Below are positions 2-10,922 of a stretch of DNA of 10,922 nucleotides, piece after piece. This stretch comes from a virus (lineage: Duplodnaviria > Heunggongvirae > Uroviricota > Caudoviricetes). A program made the position numbers and the translations under genes. The DNA lies in the IMG/VR virus record IMGVR_UViG_2617270960_000002; one strand, written 5' to 3'. Positions within the stretch are counted from its first letter, which is position 1. Each line of letters begins with the position of its first letter. The notes below the pieces were generated by a model. It made no database searches and was not told where the DNA came from. It saw only the letters and a list, made by a program, of their open reading frames with translations.

Positions 2-406
2 ATCGGGGAGGAAGAAGCCCGTGCCTTTTCCCGCGAGGTTGAAGCGGCATGGAAAGAGTTTGCCGAGGACGACTGTTGCTGCATTGACGTTGAGCGAAAA
101 CGCACGTTCACCATGATGATTCGGGAAGGTGTGGCCATGCATGCCTTTAACGGTGAACTGTTCGTTCAGGCCACCTGGGATACCAGCCCGTCGCGACTGT
201 TCCGGACACAGTTCCGGATGGTCAGTCCGAAGCGTATCAGCAACCCGAACAATACCGGCGACAGCCGGAACTGCCGTGCCGGTGTGCAGATTAATGACAG
301 CGGTGCGGCGCTGGGATATTACGTCAGCGAGGACGGCTATCCTGGCTGGATGCCGCAGAAATGGACATGGATACCCCGTGAATTACCCGGCGGGCGCGCG
401 CGTTGA
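2..406 (+). CDS. 3' end of an upstream phage head-module gene (5' end outside the window); product not identified, possibly an FI-like DNA-packaging or head-completion protein
   Basis: Frame 2 is open from the first bases of the window to TGA at 404-406. The translation is protein-like (…FNGELFVQATWDTSPSRLFRTQF…GYPGWMPQKWTWIPRELP) but does not match lambda FI or FII as I recall them. Its position directly upstream of the FII remnant and Z-U-V suggests a head-module gene. Confidence 0.5.
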   Translation: MGEEEARAFSREVEAAWKEFAEDDCCCIDVERKRTFTMMIREGVAMHAFNGELFVQATWDTSPSRLFRTQFRMVSPKRISNPNNTGDSRNCRAGVQINDSGAALGYYVSEDGYPGWMPQKWTWIPRELPGGRAR

Positions 407-595: not shown

Positions 596-1174
596 ATGGC
601 CATAAAAGGTCTTGAGCAGGCCGTTGAAAACCTCAGCCGTATCAGCAAAACGGCGGTGCCCGGTGCCGCCGCAATGGCCATTAACCGCGTTGCTTCATCC
701 GCGATATCGCAGTCTGCGTCACAGGTTGCCCGTGAGACAAAGGTACGCCGGAAACTGGTAAAGGAAAGGGCCAGGCTGAAAAGGGCCACGGTCAAAAATC
801 CGCAGGCCAGAATCAAAGTTAACCGGGGGGATTTGCCCGTAATCAAGCTGGGTAATGCGCGGGTTGTCCTGTCCCGCCGCAGGCGTCGTAAAAAGGGGCA
901 GCGTTCATCCCTGAAAGGTGGCGGCAGCGTGCTTGTGGTGGGAAACCGTCGTATTCCCGGCGCGTTTATTCAGCAACTGAAAAATGGCCGCTGGCATGTC
1001 ATGCAGCGTGTGGCCGGGAAAAACCGTTACCCCATTGATGTGGTGAAAATCCCGATGGCGGTGCCGCTGACCACGGCGTTTAAACAGAATATTGAACGGA
1101 TACGGCGTGAACGTCTTCCGAAAGAGCTGGGCTATGCGCTGCAGCATCAACTGAGAATGGTAATAAAGCGATGA
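596..1174 (+). CDS. Z: Tail completion protein Z (lambda gpZ family), 192 aa
   Basis: ORF 596..1174 translates to MAIKGLEQAVENLSRISKTAVPGAAAMAINRVASSAISQ…[11 protein letters not shown], essentially the lambda gpZ sequence as I recall it. Its stop overlaps the U start (ATGA at 1171-1174). Confidence 0.95.
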   Translation: MAIKGLEQAVENLSRISKTAVPGAAAMAINRVASSAISQSASQVARETKVRRKLVKERARLKRATVKNPQARIKVNRGDLPVIKLGNARVVLSRRRRRKKGQRSSLKGGGSVLVVGNRRIPGAFIQQLKNGRWHVMQRVAGKNRYPIDVVKIPMAVPLTTAFKQNIERIRRERLPKELGYALQHQLRMVIKR

Positions 1175-1566
1175 AACATACTGAACTCCGTGCAGCCGTA
1201 CTGGATGCACTGGAGAAGCATGACACCGGGGCGACGCTTTTTGATGGTCGCCCCGCTGTTTTTGATGAGGCGGATTTTCCGGCAGTTGCCGTTTATCTCA
1301 CCGGCGCTGAATACACGGGCGAAGAGCTGGACAGCGATACCTGGCAGGCGGAGCTGCATATTGAAGTTTTCCTGCCTGCTCAGGTGCCGGATTCAGAGCT
1401 GGATGCGTGGATGGAGTCCCGGATTTATCCGGTGATGAGCGATGTCCCGGCACTGTCAGATTTGATCACCAGTATGGTGGCCAGTGGCTATGACTACCGG
1501 CGCGACGATGATGCGGGCCTGTGGAGTTCAGCCGATCTGACTTATGTCATTACCTATGAAATGTGA
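1171..1566 (+). CDS. U: Tail terminator protein U (lambda gpU family), 131 aa
   Basis: ORF 1171..1566 translates to [71 protein letters not shown]…LTYVITYEM, matching lambda gpU. It is coupled to Z by an ATGA overlap. Confidence 0.95.
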
Positions 1567-1573
1567 GGACGAT

Positions 1574-2314
1574 ATGCCTGTACCAAATCCAGTAATGCCG
1601 GTGAAAGGGGCCGGGACCACACTGTGGGTTTATAAGGGGAACGGTGACCCTTATGCGAACCCGCTTTCAGACGTTGACTGGTCGCGTCTGGCTAAAGTTA
1701 AAGACCTGACGCCCGGCGAACTGACCGCTGAGTCCTATGACGACAGCTATCTCGATGATGAAGATGCGGACTGGACTGCGACCGGGCAGGGGCAGAAATC
1801 TGCCGGAGATACCAGCTTCACGCTGGCGTGGATGCCCGGAGAGCAGGGGCAGCAGGCGCTGCTGGCGTGGTTTAATGAAGGGGATACCCGTGCCTATAAA
1901 ATCCGCTTCCCGAACGGCACGGTCGATGTGTTCCGCGGCTGGGTCAGCAGTATCGGTAAGGCGGTGACGGCGAAGGAAGTGATCACCCGCACGGTGAAAG
2001 TCACCAACGTGGGACGTCCGTCGATGGCAGAAGATCGCAGCACGGTAACAGCGGCAACCGGCATGACCGTGACGCCTGCCAGCACTTCGGTGGTGAAAGG
2101 GCAGAGCACCACGCTGACCGTGGCATTCCAGCCGGAAGGCGCAACCGACAAGAGCTTCCGTGCGGTGTCTGCGGATAAAACAAAAGCCACCGTGTCGGTC
2201 AGTGGTATGACCATCACCGTGAAAGGTGTTGCTGCAGGCAAGGTCAACATTCCGGTTGTATCCGGTAATGGTGAACTTGCTGTGGTTGCAGAAATCACCG
2301 TCACCGCCAGTTAA
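1574..2314 (+). CDS. V: Major tail tube protein V (lambda gpV family), 246 aa, with a C-terminal Ig-like domain
   Basis: The true start is the internal ATG at 1574 ([22 protein letters not shown]…), preceded by GAGGA at 1565-1569. The listed ORF start at 1544 lies inside U and adds a non-homologous [10 protein letters not shown]. The sequence matches lambda gpV through the C-terminal …[17 protein letters not shown]. Stop TAA at 2312-2314. Confidence 0.95.
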
Positions 2315-2329
2315 TCCGGAGAGTCAGCG

Positions 2330-2752
2330 ATGTTCCTGAAAACCGAATCATTTGAATATAACGGTGTGAGCGTCACGCTTTCTGAACTGTCAGCCCTGCA
2401 GCGAATTGAGCATCTCGCCCTGCTGAAACGACAGGCAGAACAGGCGGGATCCAGTCTCAATCGACAGGTGAGCGTGGAAGATCTCGTCAGAACCGGTGCT
2501 TTTCTGGTGGCGATGTCCCTGTGGCATAGCCATCCGCAGAAGACAAAGATGCCGTCCATGAATGAAGCCGTTAAACAAATTGAGCAGGAAGTGCTTACCA
2601 CCTGGCCCACAGAGGCAATTGCTCAGGCTGAAAATGTGGTAATGCGTCTGTCCGGTATGTCTGAGTTTGTTGTGAATGATGCACCTGAACAGGCAGATGA
2701 CGCCGGGCCAGCAGAGCCTGTTTCTGCGGGAAAGTGTTCGACGGTGAGCTGA
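2330..2752 (+). CDS. G: Tail assembly chaperone G (lambda gpG family), 140 aa
   Basis: ORF 2330..2752 translates to MFLKTESFEYNGVSVTLSELSALQRIEHLALLKRQAEQ…PAEPVSAGKCSTVS, matching lambda gpG. GGAGAG (2318-2323) is upstream of the ATG. The slippery heptamer sits near the 3' end. Confidence 0.95.
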   Translation: MFLKTESFEYNGVSVTLSELSALQRIEHLALLKRQAEQAGSSLNRQVSVEDLVRTGAFLVAMSLWHSHPQKTKMPSMNEAVKQIEQEVLTTWPTEAIAQAENVVMRLSGMSEFVVNDAPEQADDAGPAEPVSAGKCSTVS

Positions 2753-3168
2753 GTTTTGCCCTGAAACTGGCGCGTGAGATGGGGCGACCCGACTGGCGCG
2801 CCATGCTTGCCGGGATGTCATCCACGGAGTATGCCGACTGGCACCGCTTTTACAGTACCCATTATTTTCATGATGTTCTGCTGGATATGCACTTTTCCGG
2901 GCTGACGTACACCGTACTCAGCCTGTTTTTCAGCGATCCGGATATGCATCCGCTGGATTTCAGTCTGCTGAACCGGCGCGAGGCTGACGAAGAGCCTGAA
3001 GATGATGTGCTGATGCAGAAAGCGGCAGGGCTTGCCGGAGGCGTCCGCTTTGGCCCGGACGGGAATGAAGTTATCCCCGCTTCCCCGGATGTGGCGGACA
3101 TGACGGAGGATGACGTAATGCTGATGACAGTATCAGAAGGGATCGCAGGAGGAGTCAGGTATGGCTGA
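2330..3168 (+). CDS. T: Tail assembly chaperone G-T fusion made by a -1 frameshift at 2728-2734; the T-specific segment is 2734..3168
   Basis: The -1 frame downstream of the slippery site reads FDGELSFALKLAREMGRPDWRAMLAGMSSTEYADWHRFYSTHYFHDVLLDM…SEGIAGGVRYG*, matching the lambda gpT portion of gpGT. There is no independent RBS or ATG for T. TGA at 3166-3168 overlaps the H start at 3161. Confidence 0.85.
2728..2734 (+). other. Programmed -1 ribosomal frameshift slippery heptamer G_GGA_AAG (G to G-T)
   Basis: GGGAAAG at 2728-2734, with GGA and AAG as zero-frame codons of G. The -1 frame is open from 2734 to 3168 and encodes lambda gpT-like sequence. Lambda G-T uses the same heptamer. Confidence 0.85.
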
Positions 3169-5722
3169 ACCGGTAGGCGATCTGGTCGTTGATTTGAGTC
3201 TGGATGCGGCCAGATTTGACGAGCAGATGGCCAGAGTCAGGCGTCATTTTTCCGGTACGGAAAGTGATGCGAAAAAAACAGCGGCAGTCGTTGAACAGTC
3301 AATGAACCGGCAGGCGCTGGCTGCACAGAAAGCGGGGATTTCCGTCGGACAGTATAAAGCCGCCATGCGTATGCTGCCTGCACAGTTCACCGACGTGGCC
3401 ACGCAGCTTGCAGGCGGGCAAAGTCCGTGGCTGATCCTGCTGCAACAGGGTGGTCAGGTTAAGGACTCCTTCGGCGGGATGATCCCCATGTTCAGGGGGC
3501 TTGCCGGTGCGATCACCCTGCCGATGGTCGGGGCCACCTCGCTGGCGGTGGCGACCGGTGCGCTGGCGTATGCCTGGTATCAGGGCAACTCAACCCTGTC
3601 CGATTTCAACAAAACGCTGGTCCTTTCCGGCAATCAGTCGGGTCTGACGGCAGATCGCATGCTGGTCCTGTCCAGAGCCGGGCAGGCGGCAGGGCTGACG
3701 TTTAACCAGACCAGCGAGTCACTCAGCGCACTGGTTAAGGCGGGAGTAAGCGGTGAGGCTCAGATTGCGTCCATCAGCCAGAGTGTGGCGCGTTTCTCCT
3801 CTGCATCCGGCGTGGAGGTGGACAAGGTCGCTGAAGCCTTCGGGAAGCTGACCACAGACCCGACGTCAGGGCTGACAGCGATGGCGCGTCAGTTCCATAA
3901 CGTGACGGCGGAGCAGATTGCGCATGTTGCTCAGTTGCAGCGTTCCGGCGATGAAGCCGGGGCATTGCAGGCGGCGAACGAGGCCGCGACGAAAGGGTTT
4001 GATGACCAGACCCGCCGCCTGAAAGAGAACATGGGTACGCTGGAGACCTGGGCAGACAGGACAGCGCGGGCATTCAAATCCATGTGGGATGCGGTGCTGG
4101 ATATTGGTCGTCCTGATACCGCGCAGGAGATGCTGATTAAGGCAGAGGCTGCGTTTAAGAAAGCGGACGACATCTGGAGTCTGCGCAAGGATGATTATTT
4201 TGTTAACGATGAAGCGCGGGCGCGTTACTGGGATGATCGTGAAAAGGCCCGTCTTGCGCTTGAAGCCGCGAGAAAGAAGGCTGAACAGCAGAGTCAACAG
4301 GACACAAATGCGCAGCAGCAGAGCGATACTGAAGCGTCACGGCTGAAATATACCGAAGAGGCGCAGAAGGCTTACGAACGCCTGCAGACGCCGCTGGAGA
4401 AATATACCGCCCGTCAGGAAGAACTGAATAAGGCACTGAAAGACGGGAAAATCCTGCAGGCAGATTACAACACGCTGATGGCGGCGGCGAAAAAGGATTA
4501 TGAAGCGACGCTGAAAAAGCCGAAACAGTCCGGCGTGAAGGTGTCTGCGGGCGATCGTCAGGAAGACAGTGCTCATGCTGCCCTGCTGACGCTTCAGGCT
4601 GAACTCCGGACGCTGGAGAGGCATGCCGGAGCGAATGAGAAAATCAGCCAGCAGCGCCGGGATTTGTGGAAGGCGGAGAGTCAGTTCGCGGTACTGGAGG
4701 AGGCGGCGCAACGTCGCCAGCTGTCTGCACAGGAGAAATCCCTGCTGGCGCATAAAGATGAGACGCTGGAGTACAAACGCCAGCTGGCTGCACTTGGCGA
4801 CAAGGTTACGTATCAGGAGCGCCTGAACGCGCTGGCGCAGCAGGCGGATAAATTCGCACAGCAGCAACGGGCAAAACGGGCCGCCATTGATGCGAAAAAC
4901 CGGGGGCTGACTGACCGGCAGGCAGAACGGGAAGCCACGGAACAGCGCCTGAAGGAACAGTATGGCGATAATCCGCTGGCGCTGAATAACGTCATGTCAG
5001 AGCAGAAAAAGACCTGGGCGGCTGAAGACCAGCTTCGCGGGAGCTGGATGGCAGGCCTGAAGTCCGGCTGGAGTGAGTGGGAAGAGAGCGCCACGGACAG
5101 TATGTCGCAGGTTAAAAGTGCTGCCACGCAGACCTTTGATGGTATTGCACAGAATATGGCGGCGATGCTGACCGGCAGTGAGCAGAACTGGCGCAGCTTC
5201 ACCCGTTCCGTGCTGTCCATGATGACAGAAATTCTGCTTAAGCAGGCAATGGTGGGGATTGTCGGGAGTATCGGCAGCGCCATTGGCGGTGCTGCCAGTG
5301 GTGGAGCATCAGCGTCAGGCGGTACAGCCATTCAGGCAGCTGCGGCGAAATTCCATTTTGCGACCGGAGGATTTACGGGAACCGGCGGCAAATATGAGCC
5401 AGCGGGGATTGTTCACCGTGGTGAATTTGTCTTCACGAAGGAGGCAACCAGCCGGATTGGTGTCGGCAACCTGTACCGCCTGATGCGGGGCTATGCGGAA
5501 GGTGGTTATGTGGGCGGTGCCGGAAGTCCGGCGCAGATGCGGCGGGCTGAAGGCATTAATTTTAATCAGAACAATCACGTGGTGATTCAGAACGACGGTA
5601 CGAATGGTCTGCCAGGTCCACAGATGATGAAGGCAGTGTATGACATGGCCCGCAAGGGTGCCCGTGATGAAATTCAGGCACAGATGCGCGATGGTGGTCT
5701 GTTCTCCGGAGGTGGACGATGA
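3161..5722 (+). CDS. H: Tail tape measure protein H (lambda gpH family), 853 aa
   Basis: ORF 3161..5722 translates to MAEPVGDLVVDLSLDAARFDEQMARVRRHFSGTESDAKKTAAVVEQS…, co-linear with and the same length as lambda gpH. It has the hydrophobic segment and Gly-rich C-terminal region typical of tape measure proteins. Its stop overlaps the M start. Confidence 0.95.
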   Translation: MAEPVGDLVVDLSLDAARFDEQMARVRRHFSGTESDAKKTAAVVEQSMNRQALAAQKAGISVGQYKAAMRMLPAQFTDVATQLAGGQSPWLILLQQGGQVKDSFGGMIPMFRGLAGAITLPMVGATSLAVATGALAYAWYQGNSTLSDFNKTLVLSGNQSGLTADRMLVLSRAGQAAGLTFNQTSESLSALVKAGVSGEAQIASISQSVARFSSASGVEVDKVAEAFGKLTTDPTSGLTAMARQFHNVTAEQIAHVAQLQRSGDEAGALQAANEAATKGFDDQTRRLKENMGTLETWADRTARAFKSMWDAVLDIGRPDTAQEMLIKAEAAFKKADDIWSLRKDDYFVNDEARARYWDDREKARLALEAARKKAEQQSQQDTNAQQQSDTEASRLKYTEEAQKAYERLQTPLEKYTARQEELNKALKDGKILQADYNTLMAAAKKDYEATLKKPKQSGVKVSAGDRQEDSAHAALLTLQAELRTLERHAGANEKISQQRRDLWKAESQFAVLEEAAQRRQLSAQEKSLLAHKDETLEYKRQLAALGDKVTYQERLNALAQQADKFAQQQRAKRAAIDAKNRGLTDRQAEREATEQRLKEQYGDNPLALNNVMSEQKKTWAAEDQLRGSWMAGLKSGWSEWEESATDSMSQVKSAATQTFDGIAQNMAAMLTGSEQNWRSFTRSVLSMMTEILLKQAMVGIVGSIGSAIGGAASGGASASGGTAIQAAAAKFHFATGGFTGTGGKYEPAGIVHRGEFVFTKEATSRIGVGNLYRLMRGYAEGGYVGGAGSPAQMRRAEGINFNQNNHVVIQNDGTNGLPGPQMMKAVYDMARKGARDEIQAQMRDGGLFSGGGR

Positions 5723-6048
5723 AAACCTTCCGCTGGAAAGTGAAACCCGGTATGGATGTGGCTTCGGCCCCTTCCGTAAGAAAGGTGCGCTTTGGTGATG
5801 GCTATTCCCAGCGAGCGCCTGCCGGGCTGAATGCCGACCTGAAAACGTACAGCGTGACGCTTTCTGTTCCCCGTTGGGAGGCCACGGCGCTGGAGTCGTT
5901 TCTGGCTGAGCACGGGGGCTGGAAAGCCTTTCTGTGGACGCCGCCTTATGAGTGGCGGCAGATAAAGGTGACCTGCGCAAAATGGTCGTCGCGGGTCAGT
6001 ATGCTGCGTGTTGAGTTCAGCGCAGAGTTTGAACAGGTGGTGAACTGA
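5719..6048 (+). CDS. M: Tail tip assembly protein M (lambda gpM family), 109 aa
   Basis: ORF 5719..6048 translates to MKTFRWKVKPGMDVASAPSVRKVRFGDGYSQRAPAGLNADLKTYSVTLSVPRWEAT…EFSAEFEQVVN, matching lambda gpM. ATGA overlap with H; its stop overlaps the L ATG at 6048. Confidence 0.95.
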   Translation: MKTFRWKVKPGMDVASAPSVRKVRFGDGYSQRAPAGLNADLKTYSVTLSVPRWEATALESFLAEHGGWKAFLWTPPYEWRQIKVTCAKWSSRVSMLRVEFSAEFEQVVN

Positions 6049-6746
6049 TGCAGGATATCCGGCAGGAAACACTGAATGAATGCACCCGTGCGGAGCAGTC
6101 GGCCAGCGTGGTGCTCTGGGAAATCGACCTGACAGAGGTCGGTGGAGAACGTTATTTTTTCTGTAATGAGCAGAACGAAAAAGGTGAGCCGGTCACCTGG
6201 CAGGGGCGACAGTATCAGCCGTATCCCATTCAGGGGAGTGGTTTTGAACTGAATGGCAAAGGCACCAGTACGCGCCCCACGCTGACGGTTTCTAACCTGT
6301 ACGGTATGGTCACCGGGATGGCGGAAGATCTGCAGAGTCTGGTCGGCGGAACGGTGGTCCGGCGTAAGGTTTACGCCCGTTTTCTGGATGCGGTGAACTT
6401 CGTCAACGGAAACAGCGACGCCGATCCGGAGCAGGAGGTGATCAGCCGCTGGCGCATCGAGCAGTGCAGCGAACTGAGCGCGGTCAGTGTCTCTTTTGTA
6501 CTGTCCACACCGACTGAAACGGATGGCTCTGTTTTTCCGGGGCGTATCATGCTGGCCAACACCTGCACCTGGACCTATCGCGGCGATGAGTGCGGTTATA
6601 GCGGTCCGGCGGTCGCGGATGAATATGACCAGCCGACGTCCGATATCACGAAGGATAAATGCAGCAAATGCCTGAGCGGCTGTAAGTTTCGCAATAACGT
6701 CGGCAACTTTGGCGGCTTCCTTTCCATTAACAAACTTTCGCAGTAA
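6048..6746 (+). CDS. L: Tail tip protein L (lambda gpL family), 232 aa
   Basis: ORF 6048..6746 translates to MQDIRQETLNECTRAEQSASVVLWEIDLTEVGGERYFFCNEQNEKGEPVTWQGRQYQPY…, matching lambda gpL, including the C-terminal Cys cluster (CSKCLSGC). Confidence 0.95.
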   Translation: MQDIRQETLNECTRAEQSASVVLWEIDLTEVGGERYFFCNEQNEKGEPVTWQGRQYQPYPIQGSGFELNGKGTSTRPTLTVSNLYGMVTGMAEDLQSLVGGTVVRRKVYARFLDAVNFVNGNSDADPEQEVISRWRIEQCSELSAVSVSFVLSTPTETDGSVFPGRIMLANTCTWTYRGDECGYSGPAVADEYDQPTSDITKDKCSKCLSGCKFRNNVGNFGGFLSINKLSQ

Positions 6747-6751
6747 ATCCC

Positions 6752-7495
6752 ATGACACAGACAGAATCAGCGATTCTGGCGCACGCCCGGCGATGTGCGC
6801 CAGCGGAGTCGTGCGGCTTCGTGGTGAGAACGCCGGAGGAGGAAAGATATTTTCCCTGCGTGAATATCTCCGGTGAACCGGAGGATTATTTCCGGATGTC
6901 GCCGGAGGACTGGCTGCAGGCCAAAATGCAGGGTGAGATTGTGGCGCTGGTCCACAGCCACCCCGGTGGTCTGCCCTGGCTGAGTGAGGCCGACCGGCGG
7001 CTGCAGGTGCAGAGTGATTTGCCGTGGTGGCTGGTCTGCCGGGGGACGATTCATAAGTTCCGCTGTGTGCCGCATCTCACCGGGCGGCGCTTTGAGCACG
7101 GGGTGACGGACTGTTACACGCTGTTCCGGGATGCTTATCATCTGGCGGGGATTGAGATGCCGGATTTTCATCGCGAGGATGACTGGTGGCGTCACGGTCA
7201 GAATCTCTATCTGGATAATCTGGAGGCCACAGGGCTGTATCAGGTGCCGTTGTCAGCGGCACAGCCGGGCGATGTTCTGCTGTGCTGTTTTGGTTCATCG
7301 GTGCCGAATCACGCCGCCATTTACTGCGGCGACGGCGAGCTGCTGCACCATATTCCTGAACAACTGAGTAAACGAGAGAGGTATACCGACAAATGGCAGC
7401 GACGCACACACTCCCTCTGGCGTCACCGGGCATGGCACGCATCTGCCTTTACGGGGATTTGCAACGATTTGGCCGCCGCATCGACCTTCGTGTGA
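6752..7495 (+). CDS. K: Tail tip assembly protein K (lambda gpK family), 247 aa from ATG 6752; JAMM/MPN-like N-terminal region plus NlpC/P60-like C-terminal region. An internal ATG at 6896 would give the shorter 199-aa form.
   Basis: ORF 6752..7495 translates to MTQTESAILAHARRCAPAESCGFVV…ALVHSHPGG…GVTDCYTLF…NHAAIY…, matching lambda K. The HSHP motif (~6953-6964) and the Cys (7112-7114) and His (7310-7312) of an NlpC/P60-type dyad are present. The 3' end overlaps the I start by 103 nt in another frame. Confidence 0.9.
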   Translation: MTQTESAILAHARRCAPAESCGFVVRTPEEERYFPCVNISGEPEDYFRMSPEDWLQAKMQGEIVALVHSHPGGLPWLSEADRRLQVQSDLPWWLVCRGTIHKFRCVPHLTGRRFEHGVTDCYTLFRDAYHLAGIEMPDFHREDDWWRHGQNLYLDNLEATGLYQVPLSAAQPGDVLLCCFGSSVPNHAAIYCGDGELLHHIPEQLSKRERYTDKWQRRTHSLWRHRAWHASAFTGICNDLAAASTFV

Positions 7496-8064
7496 AAACG
7501 GGGGCTGAAGCCATCCGCGCACTGGCCACACAGCTCCCGGCGTTTCGTCAGAAACTGAGCGACGGCTGGTATCAGGTACGGATTGCCGGGCGGGACGTCA
7601 GCACGTCCGGGTTAACGGCGTAGTTACATGAGACTCTGCCTGACGGCGCTGTGATTCATATTGTTCCCAGAGTCGCCGGGGCCAAGTCAGGGGGCGTATT
7701 CCAGATTGTTCTGGGGGCTGCCGCCATTGCCGGATCATTCTTTACTGCCGGAGCCACTCTTGCAGCATGGGGGGCAGCCATTGGGGCCGGTGGTATGACC
7801 GGTATCCTGTTTTCTCTCGGTGCCAGTATGGTACTTGGTGGTGTGGCGCAGATGCTGGCACCGAAAGCCAGGACGCCCACGGCAGCAAGTACAGATAACG
7901 GCAAACAGAACACCTATTTCTCCTCACTGGATAACATGGTTGCCCAGGGCAATGTTCTGCCCGTTCTGTACGGTGAAATGCGCGTGGGGTCGCGGGTGGT
8001 CTCTCAGGAGATCAGCACGGCAGACGAAGGGGATGGTGGTCAGGTTGTGGTGATTGGTCGCTGA
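7393..8064 (+). pseudogene. I: Tail tip assembly protein I (lambda gpI family), interrupted by an in-frame amber codon (TAG 7621-7623) at codon 77. Full-length 223 aa would need amber suppression; otherwise a 76-aa N-terminal fragment, with possible re-initiation at GTG 7651.
   Basis: Frame 1 from ATG 7393 reads MAATHTLPLASPGMARICLYGDLQRFGRRIDLRVKTGAEAIRALATQLPAFRQKLSDGWYQVRIAGRDVSTSGLTA, then TAG, then continues in the same frame LHETLPDGAVIHIVPRVAGAKSGGVFQIVLGAAAIAG…GQVVVIGR* to 8064. Lambda gpI has Gln (CAG) at this position as I recall, and the total span of 672 nt equals lambda I. Confidence 0.8.
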
Positions 8065-8082
8065 TGCAAAACATTTTATGTG

Positions 8083-8110
8083 AAACCGCCTGCGGGCGGT
8101 TTTGTCGTTT
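8083..8110 (+). terminator. Candidate stem-loop followed by a T-rich tract in the I-J intergenic region (weak intrinsic-terminator-like or mRNA-structure element)
   Basis: AAACCGCC (8083-8090), loop TGCG, then GGCGGTTT (8095-8102) form an inverted repeat with a 5-bp GC core, followed by TGTCGTTT. The U-tract is interrupted, so a true terminator is doubtful. Confidence 0.3.
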
Positions 8111-8112
8111 AT

Positions 8113-8117
8113 GGAGC
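8113..8117 (+). promoter_or_regulatory. Shine-Dalgarno-like ribosome-binding site for J (GGAGC)
   Basis: GGAG at 8113-8116 lies 8 nt upstream of the J ATG at 8125. Confidence 0.5.
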
Positions 8118-8124
8118 GTGACGA

Positions 8125-10922
8125 ATGGGTAAAGGCAGCAGTAAGGGGCATACCCCGCGCGAAGCGAAGGACAACCTGAAGTCCACGCAGCTGCTGAGTG
8201 TGATCGATGTCATCAGCGAAGGGCCGATTGAAGGTCCGGTGGATGGATTAAAAAGCGTGCTGCTGAACAGTACGCCGGTGCTGGACAGTGAGGGGAATAC
8301 CAATATCTCCGGCGTCACGGTGGTGTTCCGGGCAGGTGAGCAGGAGCAGACGCCGCCGGAGGGCTTTGAATCCTCCGGTTCCGAGACGGTGCTGGGTACG
8401 GAAGTGAAATACGACACGCCGATTACCCGGACCATCACGTCTGCAAACATCGACCGTCTGCGCTTTACCTTCGGTGTGCAGGCACTGGTGGAAACCACCT
8501 CAAAGGGGGACCGGAATCCGTCGGAAGTCCGCCTGCTGGTTCAGATACAGCGTAACGGTGGCTGGGTGACGGAAAAAGACATCACCATTAAAGGCAAAAC
8601 CACCTCACAGTATCTGGCATCGGTGGTGGTGGGTAACCTGCCGCCGCGCCCGTTCAATATCCGGATGCGCAGGATGACGCCGGACAGCACCACAGATCAG
8701 CTGCAGAACAAAACGCTCTGGTCGTCATACACCGAAATCATCGATGTGAAACAGTGCTACCCGAACACGGCACTGGTCGGCGTACAGGTGGATTCGGAGC
8801 AGTTCGGCAGCCAGCAGGTGAGCCGTAATTATCATCTGCGCGGGCGTATTCTGCAGGTGCCGTCGAACTATAACCCGCAGACGCGGCAATACAGCGGTAT
8901 CTGGGACGGAACGTTTAAGCCAGCATACAGCAATAACATGGCCTGGTGTCTGTGGGATATGCTGACCCATCCACGCTACGGCATGGGGAAACGTCTTGGT
9001 GCGGCGGATGTGGACAAATGGGCGCTGTATGTCATCGGCCAGTACTGCGACCAGTCAGTGCCGGACGGCTTTGGCGGCACGGAGCCGCGCATCACCTGTA
9101 ATGCGTACCTGACCACACAACGTAAGGCGTGGGATGTGCTCAGTGATTTCTGCTCGGCGATGCGCTGTATGCCGGTATGGAACGGGCAGACGCTGACGTT
9201 CGTGCAGGACCGACCGTCGGATAAGGCGTGGACCTATAACCGCAGTAATGTGGTGATGCCGGATGATGGCGCGCCGTTCCGCTACAGCTTCAGCGCCCTG
9301 AAGGACCGCCATAATGCCGTTGAGGTGAACTGGATTGACCCGAATAACGGCTGGGAGACGGCGACAGAGCTTGTTGAAGATACGCAGGCCATTGCCCGTT
9401 ACGGTCGTAATGTCACGAAGATGGATGCCTTTGGCTGTACCAGTCGGGGGCAGGCACACCGCGCCGGGCTGTGGCTGATTAAAACGGAACTGCTGGAAAC
9501 GCAGACCGTGGACTTCAGCGTGGGTGCTGAAGGGCTTCGCCATGTACCGGGCGATGTCATTGAAATCTGCGATGATGACTATGCCGGTATCAGCATCGGC
9601 GGGCGCGTGCTGGCGGTGAACAGCCAGACCCGGACGCTGACGCTCGACCGTGAAATCACGCTGCTATCCTCCGGTACTACGCTGATAAGCCTGGTTGACG
9701 GAAGTGGCAATCCGGTCAGCGTGGAGGTCCAGTCCGTCACCGACGGCGTGAAGGTAAAAGTGAGCCGTGTTCCTGACGGCGTTGCAGAATACAGCGTGTG
9801 GGGGCTGAAGTTGCCGACGTTGCGCCAGCGCCTGTTCCGCTGTGTGAGTATCCGTGAGAACGATGACGGCACGTATGCCATCACCGCCGTGCAGCATGTA
9901 CCGGAAAAAGAAGCCATCGTGGATAACGGGGCGCACTTTGACGGCGACCAGAGCGGCACGGTGAATGGCGTTACGCCGCCAGCGGTGCAGCACCTGACCG
10001 CCGAAGTCACCGCAGACAGCGGGGAGTATCAGGTACTGGCCCGCTGGGACACGCCGAAGGTGGTGAAGGGCGTGAGCTTCCTGCTCCGTCTGACCGTAAC
10101 AGCGGATGACGGCAGTGAGCGGCTGGTCAGCACGGCCCGGACGACGGAAACCACATACCGCTTCAGGCAGCTGGCGCCAGGGAACTACAGGCTGACGGTC
10201 CGGGCGGTAAATGCGTGGGGACAGCAGGGCGATCCGGCGTTGGTATCGTTCCGGATTGCCGCCCCGGCAGCGCCGTCGCGGATTGAGCTGACGTCGGGCT
10301 ATTTTCAGATAACTGCCACGCCGCATCTTGCGGTTTATGATCCGACGGTACAGTTTGAGTTCTGGTTCTCGGAAAAGCGGATTGCGGATATCAGGCAGGT
10401 TGAAACCACAGCACGCTATCTTGGCACGGCGCTGTACTGGATAGCCGCCAGTATCAATATCAGGCCGGGCCATGATTATTATTTTTACGTTCGCAGTGTG
10501 AACACCGTTGGCAAATCGGCATTCGTGGAGGCTGTTGGTCAGCCGAGTGATGATGCATCCGGCTATCTGGATTTTTTCAAAGGCGAGATAGGGAAAACCC
10601 ATCTGGCTCAGGAGCTGTGGACGCAGATTGATAACGGTCAGCTTGCGCCTGACCTGGCTGAAATCAGGACGTCCATTACGGATGTCAGCAATGAAATCAC
10701 GCAGACCGTCAATAAGAAACTGGAAGACCAGAGTGCGGCAATTCAGCAGATACAGAAGGTTCAGGTTGATACAAATAATAACCTGAACAGCATGTGGGCT
10801 GTGAAGCTGCAGCAGATGCAGGACGGACGCCTTTATATCGCGGGTATTGGTGTCGGTATTGAGAACACCCCTGACGGCATGCAGAGTCAGGTGCTGCTGG
10901 CGGCGGACAGGATTGCGATGGT
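8125..10922 (+). CDS. J: Tail tip/central tail fibre protein J (lambda gpJ family), 3'-truncated by the window end (~932 of ~1100+ codons present)
   Basis: Frame 1 from ATG 8125 reads [63 protein letters not shown]…, near-identical to lambda gpJ over roughly the first 800 residues. The frame stays open to the last base of the window, and no competing sense-strand ORF is listed after 8064. Confidence 0.95.

Follow-up and report, generated by a model that had tools for sequence, protein, structure and literature searches.

An amber codon at Gln77 of tail gene I in a lambda-like prophage of Escherichia coli

Gene I of lambda and its counterpart in the window

The sus (amber) mutants of phage lambda are conditional-lethal alleles that are grown on supE or supF hosts, and amber mutations in tail genes have long served as markers in the laboratory. 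Lambda gene I lies between K and J and encodes gpI, of which residues 135-223 alone are resolved in the virion, where they form a trimeric plug beneath the C-terminus of gpH (PMC10721106, PMC12617516). The JAB peptidase of gpK is predicted to cleave the N-terminal ubiquitin-like domain from gpI (PMC1779556). The window analysed here is a stretch of 10,922 nucleotides and represents the entire contig JNRP01000057.1 (locus L008) of the draft E. coli assembly GCA_000704745.1. Its gene I, which is of the lambda gpI type (tail tip assembly or plug protein), is located at 7393..8064 (223 codons plus stop) on the plus strand, as are the other genes of the window and the deletion junction described below. 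It occupies the same place as in lambda, with gene K (JAB/MPN plus NlpC/P60 peptidase; 6752..7495), which is intact, overlapping its start by 103 bases, and with the 5' part of gene J (central tail fibre; 8125..10922 in the gene table of L008) running past the contig end. The order K, I, J is found in the gene tables of L008, of L002, which is one of two prophages of strain 1297KP, and of phage 2G7b. The gene I product of the window and lambda gpI are identical at 218 of the 223 residues, and share the ubiquitin-like N-terminus, the Gly/Ala-rich hydrophobic linker and the C-terminal domain. The two translations differ only at position 77, where the window has a stop, and at residues 163-166, which are TAAS in the window and RIQT in lambda. 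At the DNA level, codon 77 is TAG in the window and CAG in lambda, and codon 87 is GTG in the window and GTA in lambda. The TAAS patch (window 7879-7890) lies within the segment of gpI that is built into the tail tip.

The in-frame TAG is located at 7621-7623 (GGG TTA ACG GCG TAG TTA CAT GAG) and is codon 77 of the frame that runs from ATG 7393 to TGA 8062-8064 with 223 sense positions. The list of open reading frames splits gene I at this codon into two parts in the same frame, 7393..7623 and GTG 7651..8064. The first part encodes the product of 76 amino acid residues that is expected from the stop, with an incomplete ubiquitin-like beta-grasp domain. The second part starts at Val87, encodes 137 residues, and is called as a separate gene in public assemblies. 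It holds the linker, which is hydrophobic and rich in Gly and Ala, and the C-terminal domain that forms the tail-tip plug in lambda. Alignment with lambda gene I (NC_001416, 14773..15444) bears out the first-pass annotation, which had described the frame as lambda-like and co-linear on both sides of the TAG. This annotation had given the lambda protein as GLTAQLHETLPDG, with glutamine at the position of the stop, which is correct, because the homologous codon of lambda is CAG (Gln77). CAG is also present in the six other gene I copies that were aligned over codon 77, namely those of ATCC 8739, phage 2G7b and four prophage or read-assembly contigs. Over 675 bases, the intact gene I of ATCC 8739 departs from that of the window at position 229 alone (T>C, giving CAG). 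This result directly reveals a single inactivating change relative to an otherwise identical intact orthologue, a C-to-T transition at 7621, as had been proposed. Since no further change is found 3' of the stop relative to the ATCC 8739 allele, the lesion is likely to be recent.

When glutamine is restored at position 77, the translation matches the Pfam family PF06805 (Lambda_tail_I) over residues 14-97 with an E value of 1e-28. The fragment of 76 residues alone matches PF06805 with an E value of 2.6e-18, reaching only position 60 of the 83 positions of the profile. The stop is therefore located inside a domain and not between two genes. The homologues of gene I do not end at 7621-7623 but run on across it, as the Pfam match does, and the possibility that the two parts represent separate conserved genes was rejected because the domain crosses the stop. 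The uninterrupted frame of about 223 codons that is expected of PF06805/TAPI is broken in the window at codon 77. The window thus very probably holds a pseudogene of the lambda tail assembly protein I family and no working member.

The start of the gene is assigned to ATG 7393, which is preceded by the Shine-Dalgarno-like sequence GAGAGAGGU (-8.5 kcal/mol). PGAP places the start at GTG 7492, where a Shine-Dalgarno sequence is lacking. As the Pfam domain starts at residue 14 of the long form, ATG 7393 is favoured. In the I-J spacer, a GC-rich inverted repeat at 8082-8108 is followed by T's (AAACCGCCTGCGGGCGGTTTTGTCGTTT). A scan for terminators and promoters around gene I gave nothing relevant, and the inverted repeat at 8082-8108 is absent from its list of terminators.

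Distribution of the amber allele

The TAG is also present in two sister drafts, GCA_000704685.1 (contigs L010, L011 and L015) and GCA_000704765.1 (contig L012). The contig L010 is the same DNA as the sole IMG/VR match to the TAG allele. Among 5,426 complete E. coli genomes, the exact allele is found only in NZ_CM173856.1 of strain 1297KP, a clinical strain from a human host in the Czech Republic. The gene I of strain 1297KP is identical to that of the window over 675 bases (100%), is located in a prophage at the Qin site, and is labelled in RefSeq by PGAP as a pseudogene with an "internal stop". The identical allele is thus already known as a pseudogene in the RefSeq annotation. A 37-mer containing the TAG is also present in the metagenome contig OHAS01021650.1 (L020).

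An intact gene, with the T at 7621 arising from an error of sequencing or assembly, is very unlikely. This would be conceivable because the window is a short-read draft contig across DNA that is repeated among co-resident prophages, and is apparently a mosaic of two of them. However, two sister drafts, the metagenome contig and the complete chromosome of strain 1297KP all have T at this position. The sister drafts may share an assembly method, but the assemblies of strain 1297KP and the metagenome are apparently separate submissions, going by the record names. Direct recurrence of the T across independent assemblies makes a one-off sequencing error unlikely. A test against chance is not applicable to a single-base variant, and it is the reality of the T that is testable instead.

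Of 2,229 complete E. coli genomes in which this stretch is present, only one contains the exact 81-mer around the stop, and the remaining complete-genome records, among the matches listed, differ from it by one mismatch. None of 63 records of sequenced phages contains it. In IMG/VR, a 20-mer with TAG is found in one contig, and the corresponding 20-mer with CAG in at least 120. The 37-mer with TAG has no exact match among the GTDB species representatives, and a literature search on the assembly accessions and the strain name gave no matches. The counts for genomes, phages and IMG/VR identify this allele as rare and restricted to a lineage. A programmed readthrough or recoding site was rejected, because the stop is not conserved, being missing from 2,228 of the 2,229 genomes.

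Amber codons in tail genes are typical of the classical laboratory markers, and the first-pass annotation had taken the TAG as a signature of a laboratory-derived phage. The allele of the window resembles those of the classical sus mutants in that it is a CAG-to-TAG change in an essential morphogenesis gene, which a glutamine-inserting suppressor could restore perfectly. However, the DNA is not that of lambda: records named Lambda, among the matches listed, are only about 96% identical in gene I, whereas strain 1297KP, the closest among the complete E. coli genomes, reaches 98.5% identity over the whole window. The carriers are natural isolates and a metagenome, not laboratory stocks. The copy of strain 1297KP resides at the chromosomal Qin site of a human isolate, and the absence of the allele from the 63 sequenced phages also argues against such a source. 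The element of the window also bears further inactivating lesions, unlike the sus mutants. The probability that it descends from a laboratory sus mutant of lambda in gene I is thus close to nil.

Lesions other than the TAG are found in gene I elsewhere. Among 71 further IMG/VR loci with a full-length alignment to gene I, 69 are uninterrupted and two are broken by indels. Several public contigs in which the ORF of 137 residues is separately called have other lesions in the 5' part of gene I, namely insertions, a one-base deletion and larger deletions. Breaks of gene I thus appear to be commonplace and a routine part of prophage decay.

Defects and mosaic structure of the prophages

The window contains a deletion of head genes in addition to the amber codon. 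Positions 1-399 match the interior of the portal gene, and positions from 387 onward match the middle of FII, such that the junction is located at 387..399. About 4.24 kb has been lost there, and the join coincides with a repeat that is short and imperfect. Portal codons up to about 230 of 533 are followed by FII from codon 52, in a different reading frame. The deleted DNA comprised the rest of the portal gene (its 3' half), the genes for the protease (C), the decoration protein (D), the capsid protein (E) and FI, as well as the 5' half of FII. Among the 5,426 complete E. coli genomes, this junction is found only in strain 1297KP, in a prophage adjoining icd (the e14 site), whose gene I is a different and intact allele. 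The linkage of the TAG and the deletion is seen in one short-read contig only, and the two lesions reside in separate prophages in the complete genome of strain 1297KP. The tail genes Z, U, V, G, T, H, M and L (596..6746) are all full length, and the ORF lengths of these genes and of K are those of the phage 2G7b annotation. The slippery heptamer GGGAAAG of the G-T programmed frameshift is intact at 2728-2734, at the end of gene G.

The TAG-bearing prophage at the Qin site of strain 1297KP contains dicA/dicB/dicC, relBE and ydfK/pinQ. It has a partial IS transposase gene among the early genes, just downstream of dicA/dicC, and three pseudogenes other than gene I, which are truncated ydfB, truncated ydfR and frameshifted gnsB. 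Among its late morphogenesis genes, from terminase to tail-fibre assembly, only gene I is flagged as broken by PGAP. Further inactivating lesions are thus present both in the window (the deletion) and in the Qin-site prophage (the partial IS and the pseudogenes), with the link between TAG and deletion confined to one draft contig. The two prophages of strain 1297KP resemble the cryptic lambdoid prophages Qin and e14 of E. coli K-12 in that they occupy the same sites, the copy with the TAG at the Qin site and the copy with the deletion at the e14 site, and in that both carry pseudogenes. They differ from the K-12 prophages in that they retain nearly complete late regions.

The window is a mosaic of these two prophages (L002 and L004 of NZ_CM173856.1). 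The region of 1-500 is identical to the icd-site prophage, and the region from about 7500 to the end is nearly identical to the Qin-site prophage, with eight mismatches in 3.4 kb and none in 7501-9000. In the region of about 1500-4250 (V, G, T and the 5' half of H), both prophages differ from the window at the same positions, indicating that L002 and L004 match each other exactly over about 3 kb. This identity between them suggests that gene conversion may have occurred between co-resident prophages in one cell. The mosaic structure of the window fits either recombination between prophages in one strain or a chimeric short-read contig. Under both alternatives, two defective lambdoid prophages reside in the lineage. 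The two prophages of strain 1297KP are inverted with respect to each other and are about 480 kb apart, such that their recombination would invert about 480 kb of the chromosome.

Between about 7507 and 8066 the TAG carriers are identical, and in the flanks of this block they differ. The contig L010 differs from the window at many positions in K and J. Of the three contigs of GCA_000704685.1 with the TAG, L011 and L015 are identical over the first 2,135 bases and then diverge, resembling one repeat written twice, and L010 stands apart in its K end and in its J. The stop may be present in more than one prophage copy of this strain. When the lom-stf region of L011 was used as a query for a third gene I copy of strain 1297KP, this strain was absent from the best 12 matches. 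The metagenome contig L020 aligns to 6026-7781 of the window with 97% identity, with differences as near to the stop as 7541 and 7644, and its best match in the complete E. coli genomes is only 96.9%. This contig could reflect independent recurrence of the mutation, conversion over a short tract, or a metagenome consensus that is chimeric. For the differing flanks of the TAG carriers in general, gene conversion, recurrent mutation and consensus effects of assembly are possible explanations.

Suppression, restart and probable inactivation of gene I

A host amber suppressor, such as a glutamine-inserting glnV allele of the supE type, would restore wild-type gpI, because glutamine at codon 77 exactly recreates the wild-type residue. 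The persistence of the TAG allele across several isolates is consistent with such a suppressor, and dependence on supE/glnV44 had been proposed. To search for it, the operon metT-leuW-glnU-glnW-metU-glnV-glnX of strain 1297KP, the sole complete genome with the allele, was analysed by ARAGORN and the anticodons of its four tRNA-Gln genes were read. Both glnV and glnX are wild type with the anticodon CTG, and both glnU and glnW are normal with the anticodon TTG, such that this closest complete genome lacks a supE allele. No tRNA gene is found in the stretches of 40 kb around the two lambdoid prophages of strain 1297KP, or in the TAG-bearing contigs. Thus, a suppressor tRNA is detected neither in the tRNA-Gln operon nor in these prophage stretches and contigs, which distinguishes this allele from those of the classical sus mutants. 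A T as the fourth base after TAG provides a strong termination context in E. coli, and the base following the TAG at 7621-7623 is T. A sus allele is expected in an otherwise plaque-forming phage, but the contig with the TAG has lost the protease gene, D, E and FI together with half of the portal gene. It is extremely unlikely that host suppression accounts for this allele, and the proposed dependence is not sustained.

The ribosomes that stop at the TAG could instead restart at GTG 7651, such that Val87-Arg223 would be made and the function of gene I partly kept. Restart after amber codons is known for lacI and T4 rIIB. GTG 7651 is in frame and located 27 bases past the TAG, within the few tens of bases in which a restart codon is expected. 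It could be reached directly or after translation of a short ORF in the +1 frame, which runs from ATG 7628 to TGA 7652-7654 and overlaps the GTG (GTGA). This ORF is also present in intact alleles. The segment of gpI seen in the lambda virion, 135-223, lies inside the restart fragment of 137 residues (PMC10721106, PMC12617516), and the ubiquitin-like domain that this fragment lacks is predicted to be cleaved off (PMC1779556). The codons downstream of the TAG are unchanged relative to intact alleles, but this is equally expected of a young pseudogene. A Shine-Dalgarno sequence is missing in front of GTG 7651, for which pairing with the 3' end of 16S rRNA reaches -1.8 kcal/mol at best, compared with -6 to -11 kcal/mol for most other tail gene starts in the window. 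Moreover, this GTG did not arise for restart, because it is the ordinary Val87 codon of the allele group, in place of GTA of lambda, and restart would bring no benefit in an element whose head genes are deleted on the same contig. Restart at GTG 7651 would be possible at a low level only, and its contribution to gene I function is unlikely. Met135 (ATG 7795, window 7795-7797), which is preceded by GGUGGU, is the first residue of gpI that is resolved in the lambda virion. An internal start at this position is conceivable, with proteolytic processing being the usual assumption.

The TAG allele is very probably a recent nonsense pseudogene of gene I in a defective lambda-like prophage of a natural E. 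coli lineage. A spontaneous C-to-T transition would have converted Gln77 (CAG) to an amber stop in this tail gene. Translation from ATG 7393 would then end after 76 residues, within the N-terminal ubiquitin-like domain, and the linker and the C-terminal domain, which forms the trimeric tail-tip plug in lambda, would not be made in normal amounts. Selection would not act against the stop, because the prophage was already defective due to the head-gene deletion, and the young pseudogene would be carried passively along with the chromosome. We infer that the function of gene I is lost and that gene I is not under selection. Of the four readings of the TAG offered by the first-pass annotation, inactivation of gene I in a decaying prophage is therefore the one that gains support, from the deletion of 4.2 kb, the pseudogene annotation and other Qin-site lesions of strain 1297KP, and the rarity of the allele, whereas dependence on supE and origin from a laboratory phage lack support.

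Some observations argue against simple decay. The other tail genes of the window are full length, so that decay does not extend to the tail module in general. The allele also recurs in isolates whose assemblies are separated by years, with two or more haplotypes in the flanks, a persistence somewhat greater than expected of a random new lesion. The confinement of the link between TAG and deletion to a single draft contig is a further point against this reading. It might then be that the amber allele is not simply dead, either because it provides the plug domain Val87-Arg223 at a low level, or because it has spread among co-resident prophages by gene conversion, or both. Gene conversion between prophages would explain the presence of the allele on several haplotypes and on more than one contig of one genome. 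The chance that the allele is more than a passive pseudogene in either of these ways is slim.

As a recent nonsense pseudogene, the allele provides a clean example of how the decay of a tail module starts, with one nonsense change among intact tail genes, beside a head-gene deletion, in a lineage in which co-resident lambdoid prophages apparently exchange segments. It is otherwise of little significance. A wider point is that an allele splitting the two halves of gpI could serve as a reagent to address the need for the ubiquitin-like domain, because this domain is not present in the virion and only residues 135-223 are built into it.
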